A stretch of 64,000 nucleotides of DNA, from positions 1-64,000 of the IMG/VR virus record IMGVR_UViG_3300030372_002234; one strand, written 5' to 3'. This DNA comes from a virus. Taxonomy: Duplodnaviria > Caudoviricetes. Of the stretch, positions 1,731-34,588 are shown piece by piece. A program made the translations under genes and the position numbers. The notes under the pieces were generated by a model. The model was not told the DNA's origin. It saw only the letters and a list, made by a program, of their open reading frames with translations, and ran no database searches. How positions within the stretch are numbered: the stretch's first letter is position 1; each line of letters opens with the position of its first letter.

Positions 1731-2218
1731 GAATTGTGACCGGCATAGGACCGAGAGTCGGTTCTTCTTTTGTAATGAAATCCCTTAGGGATGCGGGTCT
1801 TCCTGTAATAGGCAGGAAATTCTGGGAGTTTACGGCCAAGGACGAAAACCCAGACGGTTATTGGGAACCCCATCCTATTGAAACAAAGAAAAACATTTAT
1901 ACCGATAAATGGAAAAATAAAGTTGTAAAAATTTGGCCTAGCGTGTTGCTAAAAACCCCAGTATATAACATAGATCGTATGGTTGTCTTAGAAAGACAAG
2001 ATAGACAACGACAAGAAGAGAGTGTCACTAGGGTTCACAAGAAAGAACAAGAACTAGTAAGTTATGATTCTCCTTTTAATCCTATCACTGACATTATTGA
2101 TTGGTCTAGGTGGTGTCTATCAAGAGCATTAGAAGAAGCTAACTATCCCATACTTAGGGTGTATACTGAGGATCTTTCTAATAATATAAATAAGATAATT
2201 GAATTTATGGAGAAATAA
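1727..2218 (+). CDS. Sulfotransferase-like (P-loop/PAPS-binding-like) protein
   Basis: N-terminal IVTGIGPRVGSSFVMKSL resembles the GxPRSGTS 5'-PSB loop, and DENPDGYWE resembles the NPxGY(F/Y/W)E motif of small bacterial sulfotransferase-family proteins. Confidence 0.6.
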   Translation: MRIVTGIGPRVGSSFVMKSLRDAGLPVIGRKFWEFTAKDENPDGYWEPHPIETKKNIYTDKWKNKVVKIWPSVLLKTPVYNIDRMVVLERQDRQRQEESVTRVHKKEQELVSYDSPFNPITDIIDWSRWCLSRALEEANYPILRVYTEDLSNNINKIIEFMEK

Positions 2219-2219
2219 T

Positions 2220-2966: not shown

Positions 2967-2977
2967 GGAGATAAACA

Positions 2978-16600: not shown

Positions 16601-19600
16601 GGGTGGATACGATCCGTTTACTAAGTTTAATGGAATGACTATTGATAAAGCCAGAAGGAACGCTGCTGTATTAACCGATGCCTTAGAAGTTTTACAGGGA
16701 AGAAGATCTACAGAAAAACTCAGTGTTGCTATTGATAGACGTAACGTTGTTAGAAGAGGTACTTTAACTGAAGCTCCCATGAAGTTTGTTAAATTTTCTA
16801 ATGAAATAAACGAAGAAGGAGCTAAAGACGCTAGGATGTTGTTAGCAGAAAATACTTTAGAAATGCTTCCTTTATCTGAAGACTCATTAAAGAAAATTAA
16901 TGCTCTTAGAAATACTTTTGATCCTTACGACGAAGCTGACTGGGCTAACGGTATTCAAGTTGCTATGATGGTTAGTAAAGACTCCGCTTATAACGTGTTT
17001 AAACAAAGAGTATTAGCTGAAGAAAGACTTTCAGCTAGGTCTAGAGATTCTAACCCAGACGAGTTTAATAAACAGTTTGATGCACGGTGGGAAAAAGTTA
17101 AACCAATTGTTGACGAGTTAAGAAATGAATTAAATATTCTTAATAGAGATAGCGACGTTGTTTCTAATTTCTTAAACAGAAACGATGTCTTCTTTGGTGA
17201 AACAGCTATTGATTCTACTACCCATGAAACTTTTAACAGTCTGTATTCTCAGAAAATTAAGATTGAGCAAGCTGTTCAAATGGAATTATTGAATAGAACT
17301 CTTGTTCCTGATAACACTTCGTTTGACCGAGAAGTTCAGTTTATTAAACCAATGGCTGATCTAAATGGTATTATCCCTAGATCTGACGGTACTCAACTTA
17401 AGCCTAACACTATTGATGCTCGTATTCAGGATTACCCAAAAACAGACGGTCACTTGATGTTAACGCATCGTTTAGATACGTTTGTTAATACTGGTATTTT
17501 AAATAAAGATCAAGCGTCTGTTCTTAAATTAGCTTTTTGGAATTATGATACTGAAGCATTAGGTAAGATTTTTGACCCAATGAAAACAGATAGTCCTTTA
17601 CGATTTGATGTTCTTGATGGTGTCGATTATATGGGTAAATACGAACAACTTAATAAAGCATTTACAGATGGAGTTGTACACAGAATTGGGCTTCTAAGAA
17701 ATATGTCAAGTAAATTTGATGATCCTAGTTCTTTAGGTCCGGCTGCTGTTGTTCTTGAAGAAATTGGACATGCTCTGGGTCATAAATTAGATTCTGATAC
17801 TCAGATTAACTTTATTGAACGTGTTAAGAAAATTGAGATGGCTACAATTGAAGAAGCTGAAAAACTTCTTTATGGCGAAGGTGGTCCAAAGAATAAAAAA
17901 CGTCTTGAACAATTAAGAGAAGATTTTAGACGTATTAAAGATATGGAAATTCCAGAAAACGCTGCCAAACGTACTGAGTTGTTTGGTGCTATGTTTGCTC
18001 TTAGTGGCTTACATAAAGCTAAAAATCAGTGGGATACTATTACTGACGGTGCTGCAACACAGACCGCTTTGTCTGACGCTCACTCTATTATTAAAAGTCT
18101 TGGTAAATTAGCTGATATTTCTGGCGTTGATGCTGATACCTTAAACGGTAAAAGCTTATTTACTGGTGTTGAAGAAACAATAAGATCTTCTATTAACTTA
18201 GACGTTAGATTAAACAAAAGATCTCAGCCAACAGATGAAAACCGTTTAGACGAAAACCACGGGCCTCGACATGTTGATGTTGATGTTGCAAAACGAAACG
18301 AAGACATTAGAAGAGCTAAGGTTGAAAAAGAAACTGACGATCTTATTGAACAAATCAGAGATCCAAGAACAGGTCAAGTTGATATTTCTCTTCTCGGTAA
18401 CGCTGACAAAATGAGTGTTACTGTAAGAGATACGATTATTCTTCGTGTTATGGAAGACCACGTTAAACGATCTACTTCAGGATCAAGAGTTGATACGCCT
18501 TTTTCTTCTTACCTGTCTGCAATGGCCTTTGGTAAATTAACTCCTAATCAAGTAGCTAGATACGGTGAGCTATTGTCTAGCCCGTTTGGTATGAGGCAGT
18601 TTGCTTTTGCTACTGATGGTGAAATTCCGTTAACTGCCGCAGTTGAGCATTTGTTTAACGGTGCTGATTCTCAAAGTTACTTTACTACTGGTGCTTTCCA
18701 AGACGCTATGCCTACAATTCAAGGATTGGGTCTATACTTAAGAGGTGAGTTTGAGAAAGTTATCCCAGCACTTGCTCTTCTTAAAGGACAAAACATGACC
18801 AAAGGACCGCTTGGACCTACCGGAGGAGAAACTACTCCGTGGTCCTTGTACTCTACTTTGTGGCGTGAAATGGTTATGGACTATCAAGGTAAAGATAGAG
18901 CTAAAGAAGTATTAGTAAACAAGCTTAAATCAATGAAAGATAACGATCCTGATTTTGTTAAATTCTTAGGAAACAAAAAGAAATCAGATGAGTTTTTAGA
19001 TATTATGGCTGACACTGCTGATTCTTGGGCTAATCCAAAAGAAGGTTTGTGGGCAAGTATTGTAGATTCTATGGTTCAGGCTGGAATGGTTAAAGAATCT
19101 AAACGAAACGATTTAATTGCTAATGCTGCTTATCCCATTAAGTTTAAGGACAGTATCTTTAAAAATATGACGGATATTGACGGCGATACTCCTAGAAGAG
19201 AACTTAGAAGAGCTATGGTAGACATAGTTAGAGGAAGGATGGAACACTCCGAAGATGTCGATATTGATATTCTTCAAATCGCATTAGCTGACGTATTACC
19301 AAGCCCGTCTGAAAGAAGAGGCAAGAATCTTGAAACGTATATTAACAATCTTCCTAACGAAATTCAAGCTTTATTAAAAACTCCTGAAATTAAAGGTAAC
19401 ATTGATGTGTTACTCGGGAAAATTAGAAGGGGAGACATTACTCTTAAAGATTTAGGAGATGACGTAAGAACTAGGTATATGGATACTCTTAAAAGCGATG
19501 ATTTAGTTGGTAACGAAGATCCTCGTAAAAAAGCAATGCTTCTTGAGTTGTCTGAAGAGTTTAGAAATAAATTAGCTAAATCTCAAAAGACCTCTACTTT

Positions 19601-21764
19601 AGACTTACAGCCTACAACGGCTGCTGAGTTTGTGGCTAATCGTTATATGAATAACATTGGTTCATCCAGTTATTCGTTTGCTGGTGATGCTTTCTTATCC
19701 CCTAAACAACTTTGGGAAGACCCACGTATTGCTAAGTTCTTAGAAGATGATCCTATTTCTCTTTTAGATTCTGTTAAACGAGGTACTGCTGCTCAAGCTT
19801 TCGATAGAGCTACTTACAGTAATTACTTTGGTATTAAAGGTTTTGGAATGAAAGATCTTATTGAGCTTTACAAAAAAGCGGCTAATGGCGAAAACACTCA
19901 CCATGAGTTTAATATGATGTTTATGACTAAAGATATGACTTTAGATGAGCATAAACGAACAATGACTCACGATGAGCGTCAGAAGTTTAAAGCGGGTATT
20001 GATCACATTGACAGCATGTACAAATACTCAGTAGGTACTTTATCTACTCTTGATAACCCTCATGCTGCTCCTTTCTTAAGTATTATTAACGTTATTAGTG
20101 AGTTAGGTACAGCTTTATCTATCGCCCCTCGTCTTGCTATTGCAACGGCTATCGAAGAAACGCCTATGTCTATCGGCAGCGTTCTTAAAGATAACTTGTT
20201 GGGAGCTAAGAGAGAAATGCAAGATGTTCTCGCTATAGCTAAAAGCACTAAAGATATTCATGAAACCTTAGAGGGTTTAGGCCATATTACATCTTCTGTT
20301 ATGCACCAAGCAGCAGCCCTTGCGGCTAAAATGGGTGATGACGGTTCAGGATCATACGGCGTTACAGATAAAAAGAAAATTAAACAAATCTACAAATTCT
20401 TGTCTACTGGTATGAACAAACAGGTTATGGCAGCACGAAGTTTAGGTGCCATGCAGTACGTTCATAGATTAGATAGTATTTTCTCTAATATTGCGGGAGA
20501 TATCTCAATTAAAGCAGAAGATACAGCTAGAGGCAAGAGCATGTCGTTTATGCGTCAAGGCACTGGAGGTTTCCACGTTAACGCAGATGAAATTTACTTA
20601 AGATTACAAGAACAATTTGACGGTGACTTTACTAATATCACTTTAGATGAATTTAAGAAAACAACTAAAGAATTAGGAATTGATGAAGAAATTTCAAGAG
20701 ATATTTTAGAGGCTGTTAAAATGGGCTTGTTTGAAGAAGACAAATACCAGTTCTTTAGAAACATGTGGGTTGAAAATCGTGAGCAAATTTTAAGAACGGG
20801 AGTTCCTTTTGATAAATTACGATTAAAAATTACGGCTGATTACGATCAACACGTAAGAGCAGGTAAAGATGGAGATGCTGTGCGAACTAGAAAACTACAA
20901 GCTTTGAACGCTATTAGAGAGCTTGTGTTTACTGCTTCCACTAAGTTTGCTAAACAGCCCTCATTAAGTACTCAGCCTTTAGGGGCTAGAAACGCTGGTG
21001 TGTTGGCTACCTTCTTTACACGCCTTACAACCTATGCTTCGTCTTCTGCTAATACCTTAAGAAGAGCTATGTTTGTTGGTCCGTCTACGTTTGCTGCTGC
21101 CTTTACTGCTCACATGATTACGGGATGGTTATACTATAAGCTTATTCAGCTTCAGGGTTTCCGTACTATCGAAGAAATGAAGAGAGAATTACAAAAAGAC
21201 CCAATGGGTGAATTAACTGATGCTGTAATGTCTGTTCCGTTCCTTGGAGCTAACCAAATGGTTATCAGTATGCTTCTTCAGATGATGCGCGGAGAACGAC
21301 CTGTGAACTCCAAGCCTTACGATATTGCTGCTCTTAATGCGGCTAACACTCTCTTACAGTTACCCGTAAGAGTTACAAAAGCTGTTCAAGATATTATTAA
21401 CGGTGATTGGGAAAAAGGAACGGCTAACCTTGCCCAAAGAATGCCTGTTCCCCATGCGTGGGCCTTAGCTATTGCTTTAAGAAATGCCGGAGCATTTGAA
21501 AAGGACGTTCAAATTGGTAGGCTTAGTCCTAAGTATAGAGGACAACTTAAACCACAGCCTATCCAACCTCCTGCTAGATCTGAAGTTACTAAGAACCCAA
21601 TTAATACATCTGTATTAGAACCTCAGGTTGAAGTAGGTAAACCTCAGGTAACTCCTGAGCATACCAACCCAGAGACAGGTATGACAACTCCTTCATCTGT
21701 AGAAGAAGACAGAGTTGGAGAACTTTTAAAAGAATTAGAAAGTAAAGGGTTTGAACCAGTGTAA
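7605..21764 (+). CDS. Giant internal virion protein D-like (gp16 analogue), 4719 aa, with an embedded T7-type RNA polymerase-like segment and a zincin-like motif
   Basis: Single ORF with AAAGGA RBS; hydrophobic Gly-rich segments near aa 380-420; motif A-like DADSSG (D1931), motif B-like KSPVMTDSYG (K2028/Y2036); EEIGH motif near nt 17760. Confidence 0.7.
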   Translation: MSNFTANSQWFKDYVQSIEIAEFNKERPKRNFKDYRKEQTIASRVENERFMNDFSSLVSLVPEYDYTDELADSKENLLGMFRLNFSEQTERNAARDAKRDELASLVTDEQRTVYDTTQTSIITDLKEATKNNTPLWQVMNPDDFVWKDTGEATTRLYDTTNGYSMSQYTTFTTADTYKSWFGATRRVKMGGAQRLQLNESLADSFRKIATEAKIRWDFEGPIAEANGLTIKQYIDEAIAENPDQWWFFRNIGDLFYTTEQGNQIDGRVAPWNSSMLSERLLSMTDENWTSEGGDRDKLLAIFKMDENEIGPTGIIEGDVRKFIAENPTLIEDLQNSNNGWQFISALNKRKSERVIGNYLTENNNSYGAAGFMNLLGYGFTTDPAIALDIAATVGLTIATGGGYVGVRAAAGVLQIGSKLKFGLSIAKSAKKAKHFKRMVKRAHDGKTVGRYRAASAVGKTLRGIGEATMFSRRLLPTQIVSELFFPSLKFLRHSRAMKKGDDAADAATSWWKYLKNENYLGDSVGRRMLHRSIGGAMEGVVWGSIEYGVMEDYQDRTNSLIFGNDAAAALALDRDRSGAYGHMLMFGVAFGGLGGPLIGETFTQVGKIPQGMMIGGMKMSQWADQVLSPGGQEAMGYAKAPFAKRFGARIVQGTGNAVTWLGGGNQYSVEQQYLMYKALSKISQTELLKMAEADDNGVAMTKVLQDIEDRISKYQWAASEAGLDIREAFKSAEDVMDGKPEKERTSSAFIKQVEDHLEGQEIAARGKAGFRSRVRQAVLAEFQERMRSGQDVGIMEKAMEEADPNNPPSDPEVSNLNKTVTDIQEESAKVSKEREAVVQEQARRKEGLEPDEPARTPEQIEGEFAEQVKLRDEETIAAKTEENNKAKAELKELNKSKRKGVSKKQFKKDNPRVEELETTIRETDKFLADAEEAKKVSIEEAEAKKNAELEEAKKDLQNLSDDELTERLNDLDVILGERLYELESEAYAYWQANPEKFVKYIAYFRKKVLEERLNGDTPNANGMPPMFAAIDGLEVDGAVNMIQLFAPGTYFTRDELIRVRRQLKTEDQRFITAALEGSQDGEFDLTKAEARALTTRIKDILVEEAVNKDYTSEEMRFMNAIINEPSAETIEKAFASTRVETYVNNMMIDAAKNNKVLTADDLMLYNQDPELVIETFVKAKQDLAKLMVEVRDGNYTTILRSQGKNVLDTLGEGVEGYKKSGKGITNKWKADFLAKYFSENEEFTATKAEMLEVFEVNDEFVGPTLQQPARTSEQMDLVKARIKDLLEDVVNQQAEKIKMSEVRARRKRAGYAKQREKTQNAYAKWYESSTKLSNKTKADQDKVVFQRARNKLKEMRDSINKAVDAEWENGTIKADWIARQSKRLDVQYRPNFAHARPLVKVLSMLQAHLLGTARWKRDSLSGFFVDTTITRKDLISILETAEEGYGFIANIDEIAIGARVGEGYDGEKVIQALLTKLKSTDQTLGNVLSAGFEKNLGIHFGKKLPYATDVFGSRGDLRNLMTSLKGQLEGKQAYARGKAGAGEYAGNRGDGNIDEATWNSSFNEEFITRLGYIATEGSQRARNLLAALDGLSPEKQIATALKFINEFIPEGQNKLKSFSQLGGGTEAIDWVGPKRAAQAVLSALSTERPYANKVAESYVVKGERNRPERARRLSNIDEDGIYIQHDSDPIIQRNYERATADHAMNWLLKKLDNPDLDAEARKDIYKKLQAWLENFPEQAVLNDAVRAALPQQGLSFVPRWMVTGPDADIIGKNFGTGIEGQIQYNLAMSKVNTPALMATIHDAIFVGLPSMMTKSGDVAASPSWNFKVGDDHVLRGIGFGFQTLIARKGSFEDALNHVHQIMYGYKGLVEEARASYNTMSQKRVEGLTGKTFDTNDEFVGWMAQEFPKLDTAKKEAIIKELFPALASSYMDADSSGSNIMLALVMGQDTDFGNLWKTIKEADEGNKDVYNEAHSEAVINAYKHVESYVLERIEKRDFNGKAGLEEVYNDLGKVFTVLKDEGLSKEILKSPVMTDSYGIGVAKMKESIIESFGKPSVKEELIKRGLFTEEDYDAKIYQLSDTLATLLSKGVDSKLGGWIKQSLFAKGGLDNKKLGEILNNWRRTESGQRVRTGDEQRSVADSNNFMSDMTSGSTTANFKAGNSEEISMFDNMFDEVTRQISVLAEITGDVESAKAHVNNLVNLITDDLKGDKNVEKLMAEGKFAEAQREIDIAFNKMSEESVMVKALNSYMAQGYGFDETAFRGQLEAILGKGKADTINQILGRLNPLARQAMKGQMFRQLAISAETRNFVKNNFDQIADKILRLQAEESPLGLGKLVMEPLSEEDIRQRTILQAVKELSEIYDLEKLELEVGGERFKNLTWEDYFKQWEKDSGTGLEIRAAAIDAFKNVRWKAMLDEIDQRLAENKESNDAEVMSLEMQKEAIEQTMKMLARIIDATNEGRPTDAAKRLELVTESRNVVNTGSMPGLLGALPQTTTRRFEGAPIPILRMAQLEQTAEVKQLRSLERGAQQADTTKAVFSDAELSRPLSPEDLADVQTYKGSMYDVPLASKPIYGLQDSPSPFIAAELLQAELTNFANQVGGVAKKYLSEGNFFKLYNTHRHYVAAQEAMKADTVYRDIAKSLSEKREQLLKDRPTSDALDTESFLNQSEDYVNLKLELDKAQDNALMVRNEVLAIDGSWAKDVEERAWSIMSMSGETLETVSNGRTWGEAVNKTALDNQRSGNMIAWLAPPAKTPGEVILDGSNTAKLRYEDKSETAMLPRSAHSVDASAGLYMSNYIQVTGWFEGLKSILKREPTSREITVFARWADAKARFDVDEQNKLLSNFGKEIAPYKDLTEKQLTDIMGRGQDIAAQNFRDANNAIAYMAKPVIREQVKESLKAQLGDDFEAKVAERTGGLTLEELMNFKRKLTDENTTIFVNPLGVVIAPHKVVGDGIVNLTMQERVLALQGIQNQTVVDRMRLATMFDRKLPMNSELSSRMGGYDPFTKFNGMTIDKARRNAAVLTDALEVLQGRRSTEKLSVAIDRRNVVRRGTLTEAPMKFVKFSNEINEEGAKDARMLLAENTLEMLPLSEDSLKKINALRNTFDPYDEADWANGIQVAMMVSKDSAYNVFKQRVLAEERLSARSRDSNPDEFNKQFDARWEKVKPIVDELRNELNILNRDSDVVSNFLNRNDVFFGETAIDSTTHETFNSLYSQKIKIEQAVQMELLNRTLVPDNTSFDREVQFIKPMADLNGIIPRSDGTQLKPNTIDARIQDYPKTDGHLMLTHRLDTFVNTGILNKDQASVLKLAFWNYDTEALGKIFDPMKTDSPLRFDVLDGVDYMGKYEQLNKAFTDGVVHRIGLLRNMSSKFDDPSSLGPAAVVLEEIGHALGHKLDSDTQINFIERVKKIEMATIEEAEKLLYGEGGPKNKKRLEQLREDFRRIKDMEIPENAAKRTELFGAMFALSGLHKAKNQWDTITDGAATQTALSDAHSIIKSLGKLADISGVDADTLNGKSLFTGVEETIRSSINLDVRLNKRSQPTDENRLDENHGPRHVDVDVAKRNEDIRRAKVEKETDDLIEQIRDPRTGQVDISLLGNADKMSVTVRDTIILRVMEDHVKRSTSGSRVDTPFSSYLSAMAFGKLTPNQVARYGELLSSPFGMRQFAFATDGEIPLTAAVEHLFNGADSQSYFTTGAFQDAMPTIQGLGLYLRGEFEKVIPALALLKGQNMTKGPLGPTGGETTPWSLYSTLWREMVMDYQGKDRAKEVLVNKLKSMKDNDPDFVKFLGNKKKSDEFLDIMADTADSWANPKEGLWASIVDSMVQAGMVKESKRNDLIANAAYPIKFKDSIFKNMTDIDGDTPRRELRRAMVDIVRGRMEHSEDVDIDILQIALADVLPSPSERRGKNLETYINNLPNEIQALLKTPEIKGNIDVLLGKIRRGDITLKDLGDDVRTRYMDTLKSDDLVGNEDPRKKAMLLELSEEFRNKLAKSQKTSTLDLQPTTAAEFVANRYMNNIGSSSYSFAGDAFLSPKQLWEDPRIAKFLEDDPISLLDSVKRGTAAQAFDRATYSNYFGIKGFGMKDLIELYKKAANGENTHHEFNMMFMTKDMTLDEHKRTMTHDERQKFKAGIDHIDSMYKYSVGTLSTLDNPHAAPFLSIINVISELGTALSIAPRLAIATAIEETPMSIGSVLKDNLLGAKREMQDVLAIAKSTKDIHETLEGLGHITSSVMHQAAALAAKMGDDGSGSYGVTDKKKIKQIYKFLSTGMNKQVMAARSLGAMQYVHRLDSIFSNIAGDISIKAEDTARGKSMSFMRQGTGGFHVNADEIYLRLQEQFDGDFTNITLDEFKKTTKELGIDEEISRDILEAVKMGLFEEDKYQFFRNMWVENREQILRTGVPFDKLRLKITADYDQHVRAGKDGDAVRTRKLQALNAIRELVFTASTKFAKQPSLSTQPLGARNAGVLATFFTRLTTYASSSANTLRRAMFVGPSTFAAAFTAHMITGWLYYKLIQLQGFRTIEEMKRELQKDPMGELTDAVMSVPFLGANQMVISMLLQMMRGERPVNSKPYDIAALNAANTLLQLPVRVTKAVQDIINGDWEKGTANLAQRMPVPHAWALAIALRNAGAFEKDVQIGRLSPKYRGQLKPQPIQPPARSEVTKNPINTSVLEPQVEVGKPQVTPEHTNPETGMTTPSSVEEDRVGELLKELESKGFEPV

Positions 21765-21862: not shown

Positions 21863-22069
21863 ATGGAAGAGATCATTATTACTATTGCAATCAGTATTGC
21901 TGGACCCGCTCTACTGGGCATCTTTGGGCTGATCTGGCGGTTATCCGCTAAAGTGAGCCTTCATGAAAAAATGATTGAAGCACACGACAGGCGTATCAGG
22001 GATAACCTGAGCCGCCTTCAGAAACTAGACGATAAACAATACTCTATTGTTAAAAATATTAAAATGTAA
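21863..22069 (+). CDS. Small membrane protein (holin-like)
   Basis: One N-terminal hydrophobic helix (IIITIAISIAGPALLGIFGLIW) followed by a charged coiled-coil-like tail. Confidence 0.45.
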   Translation: MEEIIITIAISIAGPALLGIFGLIWRLSAKVSLHEKMIEAHDRRIRDNLSRLQKLDDKQYSIVKNIKM

Positions 22070-22106
22070 TTTTACTGGCCCCTTGGGCCGCTGTCAGGAG
22101 TCTACC

Positions 22107-22643
22107 GTGATTAAGTACCTTGTTCTGGCTACGCTTCCGTTGTTACCTATGGATGATACCGATAACGATAATTCAATAATGGACTATCAAATCTATCAGA
22201 ATGGTCCTCGTACTGTGTACGAAGGGGCTGCTAAACTCAAGTGGGACGAAAACGTAAATGCTTGTGTTGAATACACTTTCGATCTCGTACCGGGGCGGTT
22301 GGCGGGATCTGCTATCTCTTCCGATCCGGGTCAACCGATGCTTCCTTTCGATGAGGTCTTGATCTTTGATGATGAGATCTACGTTAGTTGGGAGCGGAAC
22401 CGCACTGACTTATGGCCTACTCCTACGGAGTGCCATCGGAGATTCCACTTTTTTATTATTAAAACAGAATTTAATGCTGATGACCTCAGTGAACTCTTAA
22501 GTGACTGGGGTCCACCTTATGTGGTTGACGCTCCGTGGCCTGAGGAGGATTACACCTACCTCTCGCCTTGGGATCTTAATCTGGATACTGTGGTGGACGG
22601 GAAAGACTTAGCGATTCTTCTAGCAGGGTGGAAAATCGATTAG
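22107..22643 (+). CDS. Putative exported protein with a C-terminal dockerin/EF-hand-like repeat
   Basis: AGGAG then GTG at 22107; hydrophobic N-terminus; FNADDLSELLSDWG and WDLNLDTVVDGKDLAILLAGW. Confidence 0.6.
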   Translation: MIKYLVLATLPLLPMDDTDNDNSIMDYQIYQNGPRTVYEGAAKLKWDENVNACVEYTFDLVPGRLAGSAISSDPGQPMLPFDEVLIFDDEIYVSWERNRTDLWPTPTECHRRFHFFIIKTEFNADDLSELLSDWGPPYVVDAPWPEEDYTYLSPWDLNLDTVVDGKDLAILLAGWKID

Positions 22644-22728
22644 GGGGTCAGGAATTTACAGAGGGGTAAATATGAACAACTGTGTTCAGTTTCCCCCCTT
22701 ACCCCCCGATTCTGAAAGGAATCAAACA

Positions 22729-23316
22729 ATGTCGTATTCATTTGACTGCTTCTGTACTGCGTTCTCTATGCTTGTTCATGCTATTGCTGGTAATAAATCT
22801 ACCCTTGACGCAAAAGCCGACAAAGAAAAGGCTGCAAAGCTTGCTCTTGAATTCTTTAAGCAAATGGGACTTGATGTTATTACCCCGCTTAATCGAATTC
22901 GCGGTGCGGTCAAGCACGAGTTGCTTGGCGGCACGGCTGATTACCTTGTAATCCACTTCCCTACACAGTGGATTTGCATTAAGGGTTATGTCTATAGGGT
23001 GACTACCATCTGTGAGGTCCATCAGTATAGGATCGAGAAAGCTCAGGACGCAAGAGACTGGGCTTTCGAGGTTGAGAAGCCTTGGCGATTCCAGACTATT
23101 GTTTGGGATGGCGAGACCGGCGAACAAGTTGGCTATGAATTTGAAAGTGACTGCTACGAAGATGTCACTGATATGCAGATGATTACCCAAGCCACCAGTG
23201 ATTTTGTCGAAGCCGAAGTGCAAGAAATTGTAAAGCAAGTCACTGATGAGGTCGTTGAAGAAGTATGTGATGACCTTCGTCGCGCCGGTATTCTTGACGA
23301 TGACCGGATGAACTAA
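22729..23316 (+). CDS. Hypothetical early protein (195 aa)
   Basis: ATG 22729 follows the GAAAGGA hairpin RBS; the upstream ATG at 22672 lacks an RBS. Confidence 0.75.
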   Translation: MSYSFDCFCTAFSMLVHAIAGNKSTLDAKADKEKAAKLALEFFKQMGLDVITPLNRIRGAVKHELLGGTADYLVIHFPTQWICIKGYVYRVTTICEVHQYRIEKAQDARDWAFEVEKPWRFQTIVWDGETGEQVGYEFESDCYEDVTDMQMITQATSDFVEAEVQEIVKQVTDEVVEEVCDDLRRAGILDDDRMN

Positions 23317-23394
23317 ACTCGACTGAGCGAGTATAAACAGCCATTAGGCTCAGTGCGTCGGGCTGTACCCATAACTGGGTACGGCTCGGGTTGG
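23317..23394 (+). ncRNA. Pistol self-cleaving ribozyme, copy 1
   Basis: P1 ACTCG/CGAGT; loop ACTGAG pairs with CTCAGT (pseudoknot); ATAAACAG linker; P2 CCA/TGG; TTAGG; GCG; 12-13 bp P3; predicted cleavage at G23390|T23391. Confidence 0.9.
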
Positions 23395-23400
23395 ATTTTG

Positions 23401-23412
23401 TTTCCACTATCA
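23401..23412 (+). promoter_or_regulatory. Repeated early-region motif TTTCCACTATCA, copy 1
   Basis: Exact repeat at 23746 and 24750, 11-nt match at 25402; ends 23 nt before the ATG at 23436. Confidence 0.6.
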
Positions 23413-23435
23413 CTCGATTCTGAAAGGAATCAACT

Positions 23436-23696
23436 ATGATTGGTCACTACGATGCCGTTCGCGTTATTATCCGTGCTCTGTTGCATAAGGAGGACAGGCC
23501 GTCTGATGTGCTCCTAGAGATCCTCAATATGGCTATGACACGCCTTGCTGAAGAGCGTGAAGTGGTCTGCGAGGAAGGCCCAATTTGGGCACCCGATGGC
23601 ATGGACAGACGCTTGTCTGAAATCGAAGACAAGACATACGCGCTTCTTGACTGCATCGAAAAGCTTAAGCAGCCGTACGTTAACAGGGATTTCTGA
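23436..23696 (+). CDS. Hypothetical early protein (86 aa)
   Basis: ORF with GAAAGGA hairpin RBS. Confidence 0.75.
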   Translation: MIGHYDAVRVIIRALLHKEDRPSDVLLEILNMAMTRLAEEREVVCEEGPIWAPDGMDRRLSEIEDKTYALLDCIEKLKQPYVNRDF

Positions 23697-23745
23697 TCAC
23701 CCACAAGCGTGTCCTCTACCGGGGATGACGGCTTGTTTTGTTTTG

Positions 23746-23757
23746 TTTCCACTATCA
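23746..23757 (+). promoter_or_regulatory. Repeated motif TTTCCACTATCA, copy 2
   Basis: Exact repeat; ends 22 nt before the ATG at 23780. Confidence 0.6.
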
Positions 23758-23779
23758 CCCGTTCTCGAAAGGAGAACAC

Positions 23780-24013
23780 ATGGCTTTGTACAGCAAAAAA
23801 GAATTGGACAAGTTCAGAGAAATCGCTCGATTCTTCAAGGGATTCGATACTAGCATTCGATCTGGCTCATCGTCAGAGGCTATCGATGTTGTTATCGGAA
23901 TGGTCAACCGTGACCGTCCTGTTGTCGAGTCTCTCATTAACCCACGCAATTCATTTGAAATGCAGAGTGACAGTTGCCCTGAGACGGGCATTGTCTACGG
24001 CGATCTTTCCTAA
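23780..24013 (+). CDS. Hypothetical early protein (77 aa, MALYSKKELDKF…)
   Basis: GAAAGGAG hairpin RBS directly upstream of ATG 23780. Confidence 0.7.
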   Translation: MALYSKKELDKFREIARFFKGFDTSIRSGSSSEAIDVVIGMVNRDRPVVESLINPRNSFEMQSDSCPETGIVYGDLS

Positions 24014-24038
24014 CCTCGCTCTTGAAAGGAGCAACAAC

Positions 24039-24515
24039 ATGGGTGTTTCATTCATGCTCTACCGTACTGACACCGAAGGCAAGCACCAGCCTGTCGAAGG
24101 AGAACGCTTCGAGATCCACTGGTCCTACTCCAGTTGGGCCTACTTCAGGGATGGTGTCCTCAACGCCCTGAAGGATGCATACGTTGTGGCCACCAAGGTC
24201 CGCAACGATGCTCGTCGGTCGTGGGAGAACGAAGAGAACAAGTCGGACAAGTTCTGGCTTGACAGCTTCGAGGATGCTGCGGCTAACGTCCAGCGTCTTG
24301 CTGACCTCAAGACCTACTGGGTTGACGGCGACAACCCTGACGAGCAGGTCGATGCGGTCTGGTCCTTCGACAAGGCCAAGGTGATCGAGTGTCTCTTTGA
24401 GGCTCTGGTCATCGACTCTGAGAAGTCGGTGCATCCGTTCGTCGAACGGGACCGTCTCGCGTGGGTGCTGCGTTACCTCACGGTGAACGATGGCGATCAC
24501 CTTGTGGTTGCCTGA
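24039..24515 (+). CDS. Hypothetical early protein (158 aa, MGVSFMLYRT…)
   Basis: GAAAGGAG hairpin RBS upstream of ATG 24039; the 5' part of the called 23709 ORF overlaps another gene and is probably spurious. Confidence 0.75.
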   Translation: MGVSFMLYRTDTEGKHQPVEGERFEIHWSYSSWAYFRDGVLNALKDAYVVATKVRNDARRSWENEENKSDKFWLDSFEDAAANVQRLADLKTYWVDGDNPDEQVDAVWSFDKAKVIECLFEALVIDSEKSVHPFVERDRLAWVLRYLTVNDGDHLVVA

Positions 24516-24521
24516 ACCCAC

Positions 24522-24600
24522 ACTCGTCTGAGCGAGTATAAATAGACGTTAGGCTCAGAGCGGCAGGCCGCACCCTTCACTGGGTGTTGGTCTGCGTCGT
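24522..24600 (+). ncRNA. Pistol self-cleaving ribozyme, copy 2
   Basis: P1 ACTCG/CGAGT; loop TCTGAG pairs with CTCAGA; ATAAATAG linker; P2 ACG/CGT; TTAGG; GCG; P3 GCAGGCC-G-CACCC/GGGTG-TT-GGTCTGC; predicted cleavage at G24596|T24597. Confidence 0.9.
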
Positions 24601-24749
24601 GAAAGGAGATCAAGGATGGTCTCAGCTAAGGAAGGCACTTTCCCTTATTGGATGTTTAACCCAGACGGCCCTTGCGGGGGCCAGCCCCTCACGGGGCAGT
24701 CTGGGGTACGTGACCCTTCGATCCTTGCGGGTAGTTTCCCCGCAGGGAG

Positions 24750-24761
24750 TTTCCACTATCA
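24750..24761 (+). promoter_or_regulatory. Repeated motif TTTCCACTATCA, copy 3
   Basis: Exact repeat; ends 21 nt before the ATG at 24783; preceded by a 9-bp hairpin (24723-24746). Confidence 0.6.
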
Positions 24762-24782
24762 TGCTCTCGAAAGGAGCAACCC

Positions 24783-25301
24783 ATGTCTTATTCTGCATCG
24801 TTCATGTTCGATCACTGTCGCCTCATCTACAACGTTCAGGGTGAGGACGGCTATCTGTTCAACATCAACACCGTGACTGGCAAGCTGGCTGAGTTCTGCT
24901 GGCTGAAGCCCTCCACGGTGGAGTTCGAGGTGAACAACATCAGTGATGATACCGTCGAACTCCAGCGGACCAAGCCGAGAGCCGTGAAGCTCAAGGTCCA
25001 GCCTCTCCGCAAGCTGGAGTACTTCTTCAACTGGTGTACCAACGAGCCGCTGCCCTGCGCTGCCCGTGCCATCCACACGCTGCGGAGCAAGAAGGACAGC
25101 ATTCGCTTCGTTACTGCTGGCCCTGTCGGCGTTCCGGGTGGTCTTCAGGTCTGCTTCCGTCAGTCTCCCGGTCCTGTGACCGAGTGGCAGCCCTTCACGG
25201 CTGGCTACGGTGGCGAGTGGCTCCCAATGAAGCTGGAGCACATGTCTCGCACGTTCAACCTGTGGCAGGACCGCATCCTGAAGGAAGCCTTGGCTGACTA
25301 A
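24783..25301 (+). CDS. Hypothetical early protein (172 aa)
   Basis: ORF with hairpin RBS and C/G-ending codon bias. Confidence 0.75.
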   Translation: MSYSASFMFDHCRLIYNVQGEDGYLFNINTVTGKLAEFCWLKPSTVEFEVNNISDDTVELQRTKPRAVKLKVQPLRKLEYFFNWCTNEPLPCAARAIHTLRSKKDSIRFVTAGPVGVPGGLQVCFRQSPGPVTEWQPFTAGYGGEWLPMKLEHMSRTFNLWQDRILKEALAD

Positions 25302-25319
25302 TCGGTCTTTGCTGCGGTA

Positions 25320-25383
25320 CGAAGACCGAAGAGCCACGACCGAAGGCCCGAAGTCACTCAAACCGAAGACCGAAGGCCCGAAG
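25320..25383. repeat. Array of seven CGAAG units, including a duplicated GACCGAAGGCCCGAAG
   Basis: CGAAG at 25320, 25327, 25341, 25349, 25364, 25371, 25379. Confidence 0.8.
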
Positions 25384-25401
25384 ACCCGTCCTTGCGGGTA
25401 G

Positions 25402-25412
25402 TTCCACTATCA
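25402..25412 (+). promoter_or_regulatory. Repeated motif TTCCACTATCA, copy 4
   Basis: Preceded by TCCTTGCGGGTAG, which is also present at 24722. Confidence 0.5.
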
Positions 25413-25623
25413 CCGGACTCGCATAGAGGCATTCCCCGCGTGTAGTCCCCGCCAGAAGCCGTAGAATCCCGACTGCGGTCCTCGCGTGGACTCGATGAGT
25501 TCCTCCCCGTTTACTTTTACTGTCCGTTAGGCGGCCTCTCCGGCCCTCTCACGGCATTTCCGGGTTCACCTGTTCGTATGGTGGCCCCTGCTTATTTCTC
25601 TCCGTTTCTCGAAAGGAAACAAC

Positions 25624-25911
25624 ATGTCGAAGATTAGATTGGTCGTTCGTTCCACTGCGGAGCTTAACGAAGAAATCGCAAAGAAGAAGGAAGCCCTTCT
25701 CAACGTCCGGGCAGACCTCGAAGCAGCACGGAAGCGTATGGACAGCCTCAGGCGTGATTTCCATGAGGCCCAGATGGATGTCAGGACTTTCACGGATCTC
25801 AAGGACACCTTCGAGGAGCGTCTCGGTGAGCTTCAGTTCTTCCTTGGTCAGAACGACATCTACGAACAGATGGTCGATCAGGGCATCATTGCCGAGCCGG
25901 TTGAAGATTAA
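25624..25911 (+). CDS. Hypothetical coiled-coil early protein (95 aa)
   Basis: Hairpin RBS GAAAGGA; heptad-like charged helix. Confidence 0.75.
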   Translation: MSKIRLVVRSTAELNEEIAKKKEALLNVRADLEAARKRMDSLRRDFHEAQMDVRTFTDLKDTFEERLGELQFFLGQNDIYEQMVDQGIIAEPVED

Positions 25912-25922
25912 ACTAACCCAAC

Positions 25923-25949
25923 ACTGCTGGGCATCAGTATAAACTGCCC
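25923..25949 (+). ncRNA. Minimal H-type pseudoknot resembling the pistol P1/pseudoknot scaffold
   Basis: ACTG/CAGT stem; loop GGGCA pairs with TGCCC; GT-ATAAA linker as in both pistols; lies just after a stop codon. Confidence 0.5.
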
Positions 25950-25973
25950 TTTCATTTTCAGAAAGGCATTCAA

Positions 25974-26234
25974 ATGCTTGAAGAGTTTCGTGTCTTTGTT
26001 TACGATGACTTCGTTAAGGCACGGGCTGGTCATCCAGCTATCCGTGTCTGGAATTTTGAAACCGAAGAAAAGGCTCTTAAGGTAGCCAAGGAGCTATGCG
26101 AAAAGTTTAACGAAGAGAAGGATTACATGAAGAATCTCTGTCGTTATTCTGTTAAGGTGCATCGCTTTCACGGATTTAACCTGAAGTTTAGAACGGAGCA
26201 TCCCTTGTTTAATTCATTAGAGGAGTACAAATGA
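25974..26234 (+). CDS. Hypothetical protein (86 aa)
   Basis: GAAAGG RBS and ORF. Confidence 0.7.
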   Translation: MLEEFRVFVYDDFVKARAGHPAIRVWNFETEEKALKVAKELCEKFNEEKDYMKNLCRYSVKVHRFHGFNLKFRTEHPLFNSLEEYK

Positions 26235-26500
26235 TCGAAGAAGAGTACGACTACCGTGATCACCATGTGGTGGTTGAGATTGAATTGATGGAGGACAACC
26301 AGAAGATCTGGTACTTAGTGACCTGTCCTGACGGGGAAGAAAGGACTGTAGATGTCTCCCCTTACGGTAATCAGAATGAAGTCGTAAAGAAATGGATTGA
26401 TATGTTCTATCAACACGGTGAGTATTTTAGCCGTATTGGTATTGGTCCCTTGACTATGTATGATTTAGAGTTAATTGATATTTCTCAGAAGATTTCCTAA
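26231..26500 (+). CDS. Hypothetical protein (89 aa)
   Basis: GAGGAG RBS; ATGA overlap with the previous gene. Confidence 0.7.
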   Translation: MIEEEYDYRDHHVVVEIELMEDNQKIWYLVTCPDGEERTVDVSPYGNQNEVVKKWIDMFYQHGEYFSRIGIGPLTMYDLELIDISQKIS

Positions 26501-26501
26501 A

Positions 26502-26535
26502 GGGGTCCGCCAAGGTGGCGGGCCTCTGTTTATTT
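26502..26535 (+). terminator. Intrinsic terminator-like hairpin
   Basis: GGGGTCCGCCA-AGG-TGGCGGGCCTC (11 bp including G·U pairs) followed by TGTTTATTT. Confidence 0.55.
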
Positions 26536-26562
26536 CTATGCCATAAAGGCAGAAAGACTATT

Positions 26563-26895
26563 ATGTCTAACTACAACACTAGCGTTTCTTCACCCGTCCG
26601 TGGCCGCATCACCCGCAAGGACGGCAAGCCGTTCACTGCAAAGGTGACCTTCTGGATTAACAAGAAGGAGCAGGGCGAAAAGAAAACTTGGGAAGTGGAC
26701 TTGGAAGGTCTGACTATTCTCGAAATGATTGATCGAGTCAGGCAGATTGAAAAGAACTACAAGGCCAAGTACGGTATCAAGTGTACTGTGTGGCGTGTGA
26801 ACAGTGGCCCTAGCCTGTTCATGGACCGTATCAAGGACATGCAGCAGAGCCGACGCGAGTGGGCTATCGCTCAGGCCGCCGGAGAACAGCGTTGA
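26563..26895 (+). CDS. Hypothetical protein (110 aa, MSNYNTSVSS…)
   Basis: AGAAAG upstream of ATG 26563; basic protein. Confidence 0.7.
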   Translation: MSNYNTSVSSPVRGRITRKDGKPFTAKVTFWINKKEQGEKKTWEVDLEGLTILEMIDRVRQIEKNYKAKYGIKCTVWRVNSGPSLFMDRIKDMQQSRREWAIAQAAGEQR

Positions 26896-27121
26896 GCGGC
26901 TGCTCGACTCAAGAGGTATCCCGAGTCCCCTCTGAGGCATACGTCTCAGAGGGGGTCTCCGGGCCTCACACGGAACCTGTTGACTTGGGGGCTGCCCTCC
27001 TTGTTTTTATATTAGTAGTTTTATTATGCTATAGATTACTCAAGAATACTAAGGATTGATCCGATGATTATGTAGCGTCCAAAAAACCCACGTTATTGGT
27101 ATAGCTACATAAGGAAAAGCT

Positions 27122-31035: not shown

Positions 31036-31108
31036 GCCCTCATAGCTCAGTTGGTAGAGCATTCGGCTTTTAACCGATCGGTCGCAGGTTCGAGTCCTGC
31101 TGAGGGTA
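31036..31108 (+). tRNA. tRNA-Lys(UUU)
   Basis: Acceptor GCCCTCA/TGAGGGT, D-arm GCTC/GAGC, anticodon loop CTTTTAA, T-loop TTCGAGT; CCA not encoded. Confidence 0.95.
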
Positions 31109-31223: not shown

Positions 31224-31742
31224 ATGGATGAAATGTATACGTTTCATAATGAAATTGCTTTAAGAGAAAATGCTTCGGCTGCTTCGGTAGCCTCGCTGGC
31301 AGCAGTCGGGAAGGATTACTTTACGTCCATAGCGGGAGGACTTCTCACCCTCGGTGAAATCCACGCTCCACTATCACAGACCCATAAGTTTATCAGCCGT
31401 TGCTCCGAGCTTAACTATGAAAACGAAATCAAAACTCACTTGCTTAATCACTACAAGATCCCCGGATGGGGTTCATCTTTTGTCAAGGGTAATCCAGACT
31501 CGGTGTTCTTTGCAGTTGACTGTATGCTTGAAGGAAGTAAAACACAAGAAAGTCAAAAGAGGGTAACTGAATTTCTACACGAAAAAGGATTAATGTTATA
31601 TCCAAACGCTTCCTACTATACTGTAGCATGTTGCATTGAATCGGGAATCCCTATCGAAAAAGCAGCGTTCCATCTTGTTAATGCTAGGCTCCCTGCTTGG
31701 ACAGAATTGTGGATGTTGACTAAAGAAAAGAAACTTCGGTAG
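31224..31742 (+). CDS. Citrate synthase/citryl-CoA lyase-like protein (degenerate, 172 aa)
   Basis: ENAS…SIAGGLLTLGEIH, KIPGWGS…KGNPD, LYPNASYY…GIP and ARLPAW parallel the citrate synthase C-terminal motifs (NAS…LxGxLHG, IxGFGH…KxxDPR, LYPNVDFY…LGIP, ARxxGW). Confidence 0.65.
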   Translation: MDEMYTFHNEIALRENASAASVASLAAVGKDYFTSIAGGLLTLGEIHAPLSQTHKFISRCSELNYENEIKTHLLNHYKIPGWGSSFVKGNPDSVFFAVDCMLEGSKTQESQKRVTEFLHEKGLMLYPNASYYTVACCIESGIPIEKAAFHLVNARLPAWTELWMLTKEKKLR

Positions 31743-31806
31743 CTCAGTTGGATAGAGCAGTTGACTTCTAATCAACAGGTCGAAGGTTCGAGTCCTTCCC
31801 GAAGTG
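31733..31806 (+). tRNA. tRNA-Arg(UCU)
   Basis: Acceptor ACTTCGG/CCGAAGT, anticodon stem GTTGA/TCAAC with loop CTTCTAA, T-loop TTCGAGT. Confidence 0.95.
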
Positions 31807-31810
31807 TAAT

Positions 31811-31895
31811 GGCTCTGTGGCGGAATTGGCAGACGCAACGGACTTAAAATCCGTCGAGGGTAAACCTCATGGGGGTTCGAGTCCCCCCGGAGCTA
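31811..31895 (+). tRNA. tRNA-Leu(UAA)
   Basis: Acceptor GGCTCTG/CGGAGCT, anticodon loop CTTAAAA, long variable arm, T-arm GGGGG-TTCGAGT-CCCCC. Confidence 0.93.
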
Positions 31896-31911: not shown

Positions 31912-32106
31912 ATGTACGGTAAAGGCGATAAATACAGAGACGTTGATAAGAAAAAGTACGATGAACAGTATGAAAAGATTTTTGGAAAGAAAAAATTTAA
32001 CATCATGAGTGACAAGGAGTCCAATGACAGTATGGGAAACGTACACAAAAGAAGAAAAGACAAGGCTAACAAATCTTCAGTTAGCAAACGAAGACAAAGC
32101 CGCTAA
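31912..32106 (+). CDS. Small basic hypothetical protein (GKGDKYR…YEKIFG type)
   Basis: AGAAAGGAG RBS; the C-terminal part overlaps the RNAP gene start. Confidence 0.55.
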   Translation: MYGKGDKYRDVDKKKYDEQYEKIFGKKKFNIMSDKESNDSMGNVHKRRKDKANKSSVSKRRQSR

Positions 32107-34588
32107 ACAGTCTATTGCAAAGTATCTTAACAATGTTAACATGTCCCCTAGTGCTTCTCCAAGAGAAAAGGAATTTGTATTTGACTATACAGAATACCTT
32201 AGTGATTACATTAAGTGGACAGAAGAGCAGTACGAAAAAGTAAAGAAGAAGCCTTATTGGCTTACTATTGCTCATTTGTTAGGTGCTGAACGTTGTGCTG
32301 CTATTGTTGTTAAAGCTTTACTTGATAGTTGCTTATCGTCTCGTTTGATACAAGCATCAGACGGCATTAAATACGATAACTATAACTTAGGAGACTTAAG
32401 ATCCCAGACTAAACAAAATATACTTGGAGTTATATCAAGAGAACTGTGGCTTGCTATTGGCATACGCTTGGCTAAAGAAAACTACGGCGAAGAGTTTGCC
32501 CGACAGTCTCATTACTTCAAGAACTGGAACAAAAAGAGAATGAAAGCGTTTGCACGTAAGTGTCAAACGTTGCCTACATGGGATAACCAAAAAAGAAATG
32601 TGGTTGCCTTATCGTTTTATACTTTAATGGTAGGAAACAAAGAAAGCGTTATGCCCTTTGTTGAGAATCCTATTACTATTGTAAAGAACGGTCAGATTAA
32701 AAGACATACTATTATCTCCTTGCGAGAAGAGTTTACGAAAAACTTTGAGGCATTTCATAATTTCTACCAATACTATAAGTGGTTGTATTACCCGATGGTG
32801 TGCCCACCTATTCCTCACAACTATCCTAACAGGACAGCAGAGGACTGGGGTGGTGCTTTACATCTAGAGTACAGGAAGTCATCTGTTCATAACACAAGAG
32901 CAGGTAATTACTACAAGAACAATAGTGAGCATAGCCAGCAGTCAATCAATGCGCTTAATGCATTGCAAGGTACTGAATGGAGCATCAACAAAAGAGTTCT
33001 TGAAGTAATGACAAACCTGTACAAGTCTAATCGACAGGTGTGTAACCTACCTCCTTATGAGCACGATGAGTTTGTGTTTAGCAAACCTTTCCCTGAAGGG
33101 GAAGAAAAAGAAGTAATAGCTAAATGGAAAAACGAACGGGCGGAAGCTTGGGGTCTATGGGAAAAGACTAAGCAAAAGAGAATGCAAATGGAAATGCGTT
33201 TGCTTATTGCTGATGATCTTAAAGACCTGACGTTTTGGCACGGCTATTCTTCTGACTTCAGAGGCAGATGCTATACGCAGTCATCGTTTCTATCTCCTCA
33301 GAGTGGTGACTTTGACTGCGGCATAATCCAGTTTGCTGAAGGTGCTAAACTAGAAGCAAATGAAGTTAAAGAAAAATGTGATTACTTTTGGTTAAAGGTT
33401 CACTTAGCTAATAGGTGGGACTTTGATAAAGCTTCTTTTGAAGAACGTGCTCAATGGGTAGATGATAATATTGATATGCTTCGTCAAGTGTACGAAGACC
33501 CTGAAGGTACTGTAGACCTCTGGAAAGATGACAAAGCTAAAAAGAATGTGTCATTCAGACGGCTGGCTGATACTATTGATTTCTTTGTTGCTTTAGAAAC
33601 AGGTTACTCGTATGTTCCTAAGAATCTCGATGGAACATGCAACGGTATTCAACATTGGGTTGGTACGACAAAAGCTGAAAACTTAGCTGAACTTGTCAAT
33701 GTTATTAAAACTCTTAAACCGGGTGACATGTATAAGTTTATTGCTCATAACGCTACTGCAAAAATGGAAGCAGAGCGTGATGCCAATCAATACTTTGATA
33801 TGTTTTTAACCCATTGGGAGCATACAGAAAAAGACAAGAAGATGCCAAGGGGGCTACCTAAAAGAACTGTAATGTGCGACCCCTACGGGGTTACGTTCTA
33901 CAGCGCAAGGCAGTACATTCGATCTGAAGGACATCTTGACTGGTGCAGACCATTGCTCGAAGAGCGTGGCCTAAGCTGGCAGGGAGCCATCATGGAATGT
34001 ACGTCAGTAATTTGGGAAGCACTGCAAGAAGCATTGATCTTACCTAATGAAGCTAAAGAATACATTAAAGATTGTGTTGAAGTTTGTTACAACAGTGATG
34101 ACCGGAAGAAAAAGCCACTCCAATGGACAACTCCTTCTGGATTTAAAGTCAGGCAATATTATACAGAACATATAGAATATATTACTGATATTGCTTTACT
34201 GCTAAAGAATGATGTACGCATCAGATCTACGGCAGAAATGTGGCAGTTTACTGACAACATGGACGTTAGGAAAATGGCTACTGCTATTCCTCCTAATTGG
34301 GTTCATTCAATTGATGCTGCTCATATGGTATTTGTGGTACTCGCTTTGCTAGTTATGGGTTGCAGAAACTTCTGTATGATCCATGACAGCTTCGGCGTAC
34401 CCGTCACTTACCTAAAGTATTTACCACGTATATCAAGGGAAACATTTTATGAAATTCACAAAGAAAGCCAACTCGAACTATTTAAACAAGACCTCGAAAA
34501 CTTTTCCGGTCACGAACTCCCAGACATTCCTGAACAAGGTGGCCTCATTCCAGAAGAAATTCTCGAATCTGAATATCTCTTCTGCTGA
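32024..34588 (+). CDS. T7-type single-subunit DNA-dependent RNA polymerase
   Basis: SDFRGRCY (DxxGR), motif A LDGTCNGIQH, motif B RGLPKRTVMCDPYG, PPNWVHSIDAAH, motif C MIHDSFG; AAGGAG RBS before ATG 32024. Confidence 0.97.
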   Translation: MTVWETYTKEEKTRLTNLQLANEDKAAKQSIAKYLNNVNMSPSASPREKEFVFDYTEYLSDYIKWTEEQYEKVKKKPYWLTIAHLLGAERCAAIVVKALLDSCLSSRLIQASDGIKYDNYNLGDLRSQTKQNILGVISRELWLAIGIRLAKENYGEEFARQSHYFKNWNKKRMKAFARKCQTLPTWDNQKRNVVALSFYTLMVGNKESVMPFVENPITIVKNGQIKRHTIISLREEFTKNFEAFHNFYQYYKWLYYPMVCPPIPHNYPNRTAEDWGGALHLEYRKSSVHNTRAGNYYKNNSEHSQQSINALNALQGTEWSINKRVLEVMTNLYKSNRQVCNLPPYEHDEFVFSKPFPEGEEKEVIAKWKNERAEAWGLWEKTKQKRMQMEMRLLIADDLKDLTFWHGYSSDFRGRCYTQSSFLSPQSGDFDCGIIQFAEGAKLEANEVKEKCDYFWLKVHLANRWDFDKASFEERAQWVDDNIDMLRQVYEDPEGTVDLWKDDKAKKNVSFRRLADTIDFFVALETGYSYVPKNLDGTCNGIQHWVGTTKAENLAELVNVIKTLKPGDMYKFIAHNATAKMEAERDANQYFDMFLTHWEHTEKDKKMPRGLPKRTVMCDPYGVTFYSARQYIRSEGHLDWCRPLLEERGLSWQGAIMECTSVIWEALQEALILPNEAKEYIKDCVEVCYNSDDRKKKPLQWTTPSGFKVRQYYTEHIEYITDIALLLKNDVRIRSTAEMWQFTDNMDVRKMATAIPPNWVHSIDAAHMVFVVLALLVMGCRNFCMIHDSFGVPVTYLKYLPRISRETFYEIHKESQLELFKQDLENFSGHELPDIPEQGGLIPEEILESEYLFC

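Follow-up and report, generated by a model that had tools for sequence, protein, structure and literature searches.

Pistol ribozymes are known near phage genes and in phage genomes (PMC4604425). In these RNAs, helices P2 and P3 are joined on their 3′ side by exactly two nucleotides, usually GU, which hold the scissile bond (PMC4604425), and it has been established that Mg2+-dependent cleavage at this junction produces a 2′,3′-cyclic phosphate and a 5′-OH (PMC4604425, PMC6765202). While this chemistry is well understood, the biological role of pistols is still open; the processing of polycistronic transcripts by bacterial and phage ribozymes has been proposed but not demonstrated (PMC6765202). 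Clustered ribozymes have been described in other phages, with hammerhead, twister and pistol motifs near phage genes and theta HDV-like ribozymes in tRNA arrays (PMC10879173). Our search of the literature returned no report of pistols in T7-type phages, nor of pistols adjacent to stop codons.

The locus described here lies in a window of 64,000 nucleotides, positions 1 to 64,000 of IMG/VR record IMGVR_UViG_3300030372_002234. This record represents an uncultured podophage, complete according to CheckV (100%), with 72,875 bases (72.9 kb) and all of its genes on the + strand. It encodes the T7-type functions terminase, single-subunit RNA polymerase, primase-helicase, family A DNA polymerase, portal, capsid and nozzle, the RNA polymerase being approximately 25% identical to the nearest enzymes of cultured phages (Ralstonia RSB2 and others). 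Megablast of positions 22000-27000 against GenBank phages found nothing, and homologues of gene D, which precedes the ribozyme under study, were found in marine assemblies, among them Tara Oceans. The phage is a member of a deep-branching uncultured marine lineage. It also carries giant open reading frames of 1524 and 4719 aa; the latter (7605-21764) had no Pfam match, and relatives encode proteins of 4670-4714 aa in the equivalent position, immediately before the early region. Three tRNA genes (31036-31108, 31733-31806 and 31811-31895) are found just upstream of the RNA polymerase gene.

The stretch from 24522 to 24600 is a complete pistol-class self-cleaving ribozyme motif on the + strand, hereafter pistol 2, and a paralogous copy, pistol 1, precedes it (Table 1). 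Both lie in a region of small genes upstream of the RNA polymerase gene, with three genes between them. The Rfam Pistol model (RF02679) gave the same two matches whether the window or the full record of 72,875 bases was searched, at 23317-23395 (65.4 bits) and at 24522-24572 (49.2 bits, E 6e-6 in the window search), the latter above the curated gathering threshold of 34.5 bits, and covariance-model searches with other ribozyme families gave no match at E up to 1. An independent covariance model, R1, was built from 24 other phage pistols, which were retrieved by a pattern search of IMG/VR contigs followed by a structural-descriptor parse, the copies of the window being left out. With filters off, R1 aligned to pistol 2 from 24522 to 24600 over model positions 1-69 of 69 (69.6 bits, E 9e-16) and to pistol 1 from 23317 to 23394, also over all 69 positions (70.5 bits). 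Neither alignment contained a non-standard pair, and the next best match had an E-value of 0.55. The Rfam alignment of pistol 2 fails after GCG because P3 is far longer than the model expects, and its 3′ end at 24572 is an artefact, the filter-off R1 alignment reaching 24600. The same holds for a default-filter R1 alignment ending at 24590, which scores lower than the one to 24600. Since R1 covers all 69 positions without any non-standard pair, the end at 24600 and the predicted cleavage site are taken to be right.

These results bear on the initial annotation, which had described a second pistol with the architecture of the first, located 6 nt after the stop codon at 24515, ending at 24600 and with G24596/U24597 as the expected cut site. 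Reading of the sequence confirmed the architecture and the spacing (stop TGA 24513-24515, first base of pistol 2 at 24522), while the pistol identity was reproduced by Rfam, by the independent covariance model and by explicit pair counts. The filter-off R1 alignment agreed with the end at 24600, against the wrong Rfam end at 24572, and also recovered the cut site, which it places at the GU junction. Pistol 2 is thus a further member of a known, Rfam-detectable family already linked with phages. A third match to AGTATAAAC, at 25936, was rejected as a pistol, as it is devoid of UUAGG, GCG and pseudoknot and no model matched there.

Table 1. Features of the two-pistol locus and its surroundings, with pistol arrays of other IMG/VR phage records (last lines).
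Feature	Position	Strand	Details
Gene A	ends 23316	+	upstream of pistol 1
Pistol ribozyme 1, paralogous copy	23317-23394	+	Rfam 65.4 bits, R1 70.5 bits
Candidate phage promoter motif TTTCCACTATCA	23401-23412	+	7 nt after pistol 1
Gene B	23436-23696	+	
Terminator-like hairpin and U-tract	23703-23745	+	fills the intergenic gap without pistol; -15.3 kcal/mol, z -2.4; conserved in G001 and G002
Gene C	23780-24013	+	77 aa, in a frame other than that of gene D
Gene D	24039-24515	+	158 aa, no known family; stop TGA 24513-24515
Pistol ribozyme 2, whole motif	24522-24600	+	Rfam RF02679, R1, descriptor parse
P1 hairpin	24522-24537	+	ACUCG (24522-24526) with CGAGU (24533-24537), 5 bp
P1 loop, 5′ strand of pseudoknot	24527-24532	+	UCUGAG, 6 nt
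Linker, P2 5′ strand and UUAGG	24538-24553	+	linker AUAAAUAG, ACG (24546-24548), UUAGG (24549-24553)
Pseudoknot 3′ strand and invariant GCG	24554-24562	+	CUCAGA (24554-24559), GCG (24560-24562)
P3 hairpin	24563-24595	+	33 nt; 13 pairs, one bulged U, loop UUCACU, closing pair G-C
G/U junction, predicted scissile bond	24596-24597	+	2 nt, G24596/U24597; aligns to the R1 GU junction
P2 3′ strand	24598-24600	+	CGU, pairs with ACG
Conserved SD-ATG block	24601-24645	+	SD AAGGAG (24603-24608), ATG (24616-24618); kept in relatives with and without pistol
Gene E	24783-25301	+	
Single-subunit T7-type RNA polymerase	32009-34588	+	
Pistol array, G006	20646-21648		
Pistol array, G007	2063-3614		
Pistol array, G008	13516-15910		
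Pistol arrays, G009	74399-75216 and 359-2041		

Examination of the individual parts showed that pistol 2 agrees with the upper-case Rfam consensus at positions 1-41 and carries the dominant base in every conserved core column (AUAAA linker, UUAGG and GCG), a column being called conserved when one base occurs in at least 66 of 73 phage pistols. The segment from the linker to UUAGG fits the conserved consensus positions of both Rfam and the 73 phage pistols, and GCG is found in 72-73 of the 73 aligned sequences. By homology with solved pistols, the first G of this triplet would be the expected general base (PMC6765202). All six pairs of the pseudoknot UCUGAG/CUCAGA can form, and P3 has a predicted folding energy of -22.6 kcal/mol (z -5.1). 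P2 is made of only three pairs beside a G.G mismatch, short P2 helices being common in the family. Among the 73 phage pistols, the junction columns hold G in 66 sequences and U in 63. Pistol 2 is very likely to self-cleave at the predicted bond between G24596 and U24597.

Comparison of the two copies provides information on the fold. Among the 29 pairs compared, 17 are identical, six are changed on both sides and four are switched between G-C and G.U, with no internal pair broken. From copy 1 to copy 2, the double changes are A-U to U-A in the first pair of the pseudoknot, A-U to G-C and C-G to A-U in P2 (CCA/UGG becoming ACG/CGU), and, in P3, U.G to G-C at the closing pair as well as G-C to A-U and U-A to C-G. 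The two remaining positions are unpaired in at least one copy, namely the apical A-U of P3, which belongs to the loop in copy 2, and the mismatch below P2 (G.A or G.G), which is unpaired in both. Of the 21 shared unpaired positions, three differ (linker position 22, C or U, and P3-loop positions 57 and 59), and pistol 2 has one extra bulged U in P3. The unpaired core is thus the same in both copies except at linker position 22, which also varies family-wide. In the 5′ half, 38 of 41 bases are common to the two copies, which form direct repeats 1205 nt apart. A search for paralogy between the flanking genes of the two pistols found none; the copies therefore do not derive from duplication of a gene-plus-ribozyme cassette.

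The same pattern extends to the family. In an alignment of 68 distinct phage pistols, pairing is retained in 96.7% of cells, and both partners vary in 18 of the 19 pairs; this level was attained by none of 500 shuffles, and slid partners gave at most 43%. The pseudoknot is 98% paired family-wide (98-100% across alignments), although it is absent from the model behind the alignment. For the local clade, the proportion of paired cells rises to 99.4%, versus at most 40.5% with slid partners.

Homologues of gene D were used to delimit the surrounding genes and to identify related loci. They are 155-167 aa long and span exactly 24039-24515, with 76% identity to P0003. A listed 268-aa frame (23709-24515) proved to be an over-extension, as homologues and SD modules show two genes, C and D; searches with gene D in a wrong frame (241 aa) returned no relatives, the true gene being 24039-24515. 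The neighbouring small genes had no Pfam match, and PHROGs returned a single marginal one, to a family of unknown function, for 22672-23316 only (E 0.0096). In four related phages (loci L153, L155, L159 and L160), gene D is present and a pistol starts 6-7 nt past its stop codon; in the three loci that reach that far, a pistol-1 orthologue is located approximately 870 nt upstream, both pistols being in the same order. Pistol 2 is 97.5-100% identical among these phages, compared with 82.5-89.7% for gene D DNA and 77-82.5% for the next 120 nt downstream, so that constraint is stronger on the ribozyme than on the adjoining coding sequence. Its orthologues differ in the P3 loop only, plus one G.U to A-U switch, while the pistol-1 orthologues add A-U to G-C in P2 and U-A to C-G in P3. 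The core (AUAAA, UUAGG, GCG and the GU junction) is nearly invariant across orthologues.

The initial annotation had read the differences between the copies as compensatory, around an invariant core, and had taken them as evidence of selection on the fold. The changes it named, in the pseudoknot, P2 and the closing pair of P3, were all three verified pair by pair, and the invariance of the core was borne out, with linker position 22 as sole difference. Selection on the fold gained further strength from the orthologues in four related phages, in which the ribozyme outconserves the flanking coding DNA. Pistol 2 is almost certainly a genuine pistol motif under selection.

The closest complete genomes according to the RNA polymerase, G001 (96% aa identity) and G002 (70%), were also searched and contained neither pistols nor gene D. 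The pistol is therefore dispensable for this type of phage. In the loci compared, pistol 2 is linked to gene D, being present with it and absent without it. The early regions of G001 and G002 are mosaic relative to the window and share with it only short islands such as the terminator-promoter block and the SD-ATG block. In G002, a terminator-like hairpin with a U-run precedes the SD-ATG block, at the place where the window has pistol 2. An equivalent situation is found within the window: pistol 1, which begins at the first base after the stop TAA (23314-23316), lies 7 nt before a promoter-like motif, and in the next intergenic gap this place is taken by a hairpin and a U-tract.

This motif, (T)TCCACTATCA, occurs at 23401-23412, 23746-23757, 24750-24761, 25401-25412, 31365-31376 and 44504-44515. 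The 10-mer TCCACTATCA has exactly these six occurrences in the window, all on the + strand. In each of three related complete genomes (G000, G001 and G002), the 9-mer version likewise has six occurrences, all confined to the coding strand. An SD-ATG usually follows the motif at 20-25 nt. T7-group promoters have a CACTAT core, and the motif is read as a phage promoter on account of its resemblance to this core; CCACTATCA would probably be recognised as a promoter by the T7-type RNA polymerase that the phage itself encodes. Repeated GACCGAAGGCCCGAAG units are also present in 25320-25400, and an exact 15-nt repeat, TCCTTGCGGGTAGTT, is found at 24722-24736 and 25389-25403, just before two of the promoter motifs.

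Downstream of the predicted cut, the 3′ product would start with UCGUGAAAGGAG. The initial annotation had placed an SD right at this new 5′ end; it is located 6 nt away, with the SD-led ATG 16 nt past the ribozyme, and this SD-ATG block is conserved in relatives. The block, GAAAGGAGATCAAGGATG(G/A)TCTCA, was observed at 24601-24645 in the window, at 2112-2160 in L125 and, on the reverse strand, at ~1310-1360 in L131. The small ORF that it opens (M-V/I-S...) comprises 86 aa in the window, 57 aa in L155 and 25 aa in G002; given this variation in length among relatives, it may not be a gene. The block could encode a short leader peptide or represent only an RNA hairpin over the SD and the start codon. 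Such a hairpin is predicted in the window, but is no more stable than shuffled sequence (z -0.43) and is therefore not relied on. A structured stretch also lies between this block and the promoter motif at 24750.

A survey of IMG/VR loci L003-L152 and the window revealed a recurrent position with respect to stop codons. An open frame of 60 codons or more terminates between -10 and +12 nt from the first base of the ribozyme in 40 of the 69 distinct phage pistols covered. The upstream stop codon often overlaps the pistol, either as TA/A-CUCG, the last A belonging to P1, or as a UGA inside the P1 loop. In L153 (1587-2189), L155 (1802-2210) and L159 (1615-2194), the gene called upstream of pistol 1 enters the ribozyme by 10-20 nt and stops at the P1-loop UGA or at the UAA of the AUAAA linker, while the corresponding stop in the window is just before P1. 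On the other side, none of the 69 phage pistols has an SD-led start less than 15 nt from its 3′ end. Stop-codon adjacency would fit a minimal structured 3′ UTR, and would leave room for gating by the terminating ribosome. Other IMG/VR phage records contain arrays of 3-5 pistols within 2-3 kb, approximately 370-900 nt apart and one per small gene (Table 1). A T7-type RNA polymerase (PF00940) was found in none of five multi-pistol records checked; pistol clusters are therefore not specific to T7-type phages.

Altogether, pistol 2 is probably a functional ribozyme that would separate the cistrons of a polycistronic RNA. The position of the pistols, which occupy the places of hairpins in the next gap and in G002, supports such a role. 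A polycistronic RNA initiated at the promoter motif at 23746, or further upstream, would extend through genes C and D and pistol 2 and would fold into P1, the 6-bp pseudoknot, P2 and P3. The RNA would then be cut between G24596 and U24597 by 2′-O-transesterification, with a 2′,3′-cyclic phosphate and a 5′-OH as ends. The upstream C-D mRNA would terminate, just past its stop codon, in the compact 75-nt fold of the ribozyme, and the downstream RNA would begin with 5′-OH-UCGUG, 6 nt before the SD. In this manner, mRNA ends would be set and cistrons parted independently of the polymerase, and neither a host RNase nor an efficient terminator would be needed. As judged from position, it is about as likely as not that parting cistrons and forming mRNA ends is the main role of pistol 2. 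More tentatively, phage pistols might in general be host-independent 3′-end formers and cistron separators abutting stop codons, possibly ribosome-gated, and in this marine T7-type lineage they might replace the terminator-like hairpins of sister phages.

Several other explanations have to be considered. The ribosome that ends translation of the upstream gene could cover P1 and its loop and block formation of the pseudoknot, so that the level of upstream translation would govern cleavage and, with it, what becomes of the downstream RNA. The location of pistol 2 only 6 nt past a stop codon, the 40 of 69 phage pistols with an upstream ORF terminating between -10 and +12 nt from their first base, and the ORFs of L153, L155 and L159, which run 10-20 nt into pistol 1, are all consistent with such gating. 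However, these arguments concern position alone, and equally tight packing is expected of a minimal 3′ UTR. In addition, T7 polymerase outruns ribosomes, and with a polymerase of this type folding and cutting are probably completed before the ribosome arrives. Translational gating is considered improbable.

The ribozyme sequence could otherwise persist at module junctions mainly as a patch of homology, its conserved 5′ half supporting cassette exchange and its catalysis being incidental. Among relatives, the early region is indeed a mosaic in which short stretches of conserved non-coding sequence separate unrelated genes; pistol 2 is present or absent together with gene D, and it forms a direct repeat with pistol 1 (spacing 1205 nt). 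Yet a recombination patch needs no fold, whereas the changes in the pseudoknot, P2 and P3 are compensatory and the catalytic core is invariant; moreover, the mosaic breakpoints fall at the promoter and SD blocks (23698-23782 and 24601-24645) and not inside the pistols. We regard this explanation as very unlikely. The same conservation weighs against an element that has lost catalysis and whose fold acts only as a 3′ stabiliser or transcription barrier, as a mere hairpin needs none of AUAAA, UUAGG, GCG and the GU junction, all of which are kept. The long (33 nt), GC-rich P3 would suit such an element, and P3 of pistol 1 together with its U-rich run scores as terminator-like, but no U-tract follows P3 of pistol 2, and a non-cleaving structure is the least likely of these alternatives.

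As an annotation alone, pistol 2 would be a routine match at the Rfam level. Its further value lies in the clean natural comparison that the locus offers for a family whose chemistry is better understood than its function: the conservation of both pistols as a module, their absence from sister phages and the rule on their position make a role in phage operons testable.

With respect to known systems, the locus shares with the pistol family (RF02679; Weinberg et al., 2015; Harris et al., 2015, PMC4604425) a P1 with a 6-nt loop, a 6-bp pseudoknot to the P2/P3 junction, the AUAAA linker, the UUAGG and GCG core, P2 and P3 flanking a 2-nt GU junction, and the phage context. It differs from the Rfam model by a P3 longer than expected (33 nt and a bulge). 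Its host is a deep-branching marine T7-type podophage, while blastn-similar pistols in GenBank come from Bacillus, Gordonia, Curtobacterium and Microbacterium phages. As in the clustered ribozymes of other phages, several copies are found within a few kb, on the coding strand and between short genes; here, however, there are only two copies, separated by three genes, and there is no link to tRNAs, the tRNA genes being 6.4 kb downstream.

Another parallel is provided by the RNase III processing sites of phage T7 early mRNA, reportedly described by Dunn and Studier. Like pistol 2, these sites are intergenic, among small genes transcribed as one RNA. In both cases, cutting would give the upstream message a structured 3′ end and create a 5′ end in front of the ribosome-binding site that follows. 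The analogy is functional only, the T7 sites having no sequence or structural homology with pistol 2, which has a pistol fold and not the irregular double-stranded hairpin on which host RNase III acts. While the T7 sites are cut by a host enzyme, with 3′-OH and 5′-phosphate ends, pistol 2 is predicted to be cut by the RNA itself, leaving the cyclic phosphate and 5′-OH typical of pistols.
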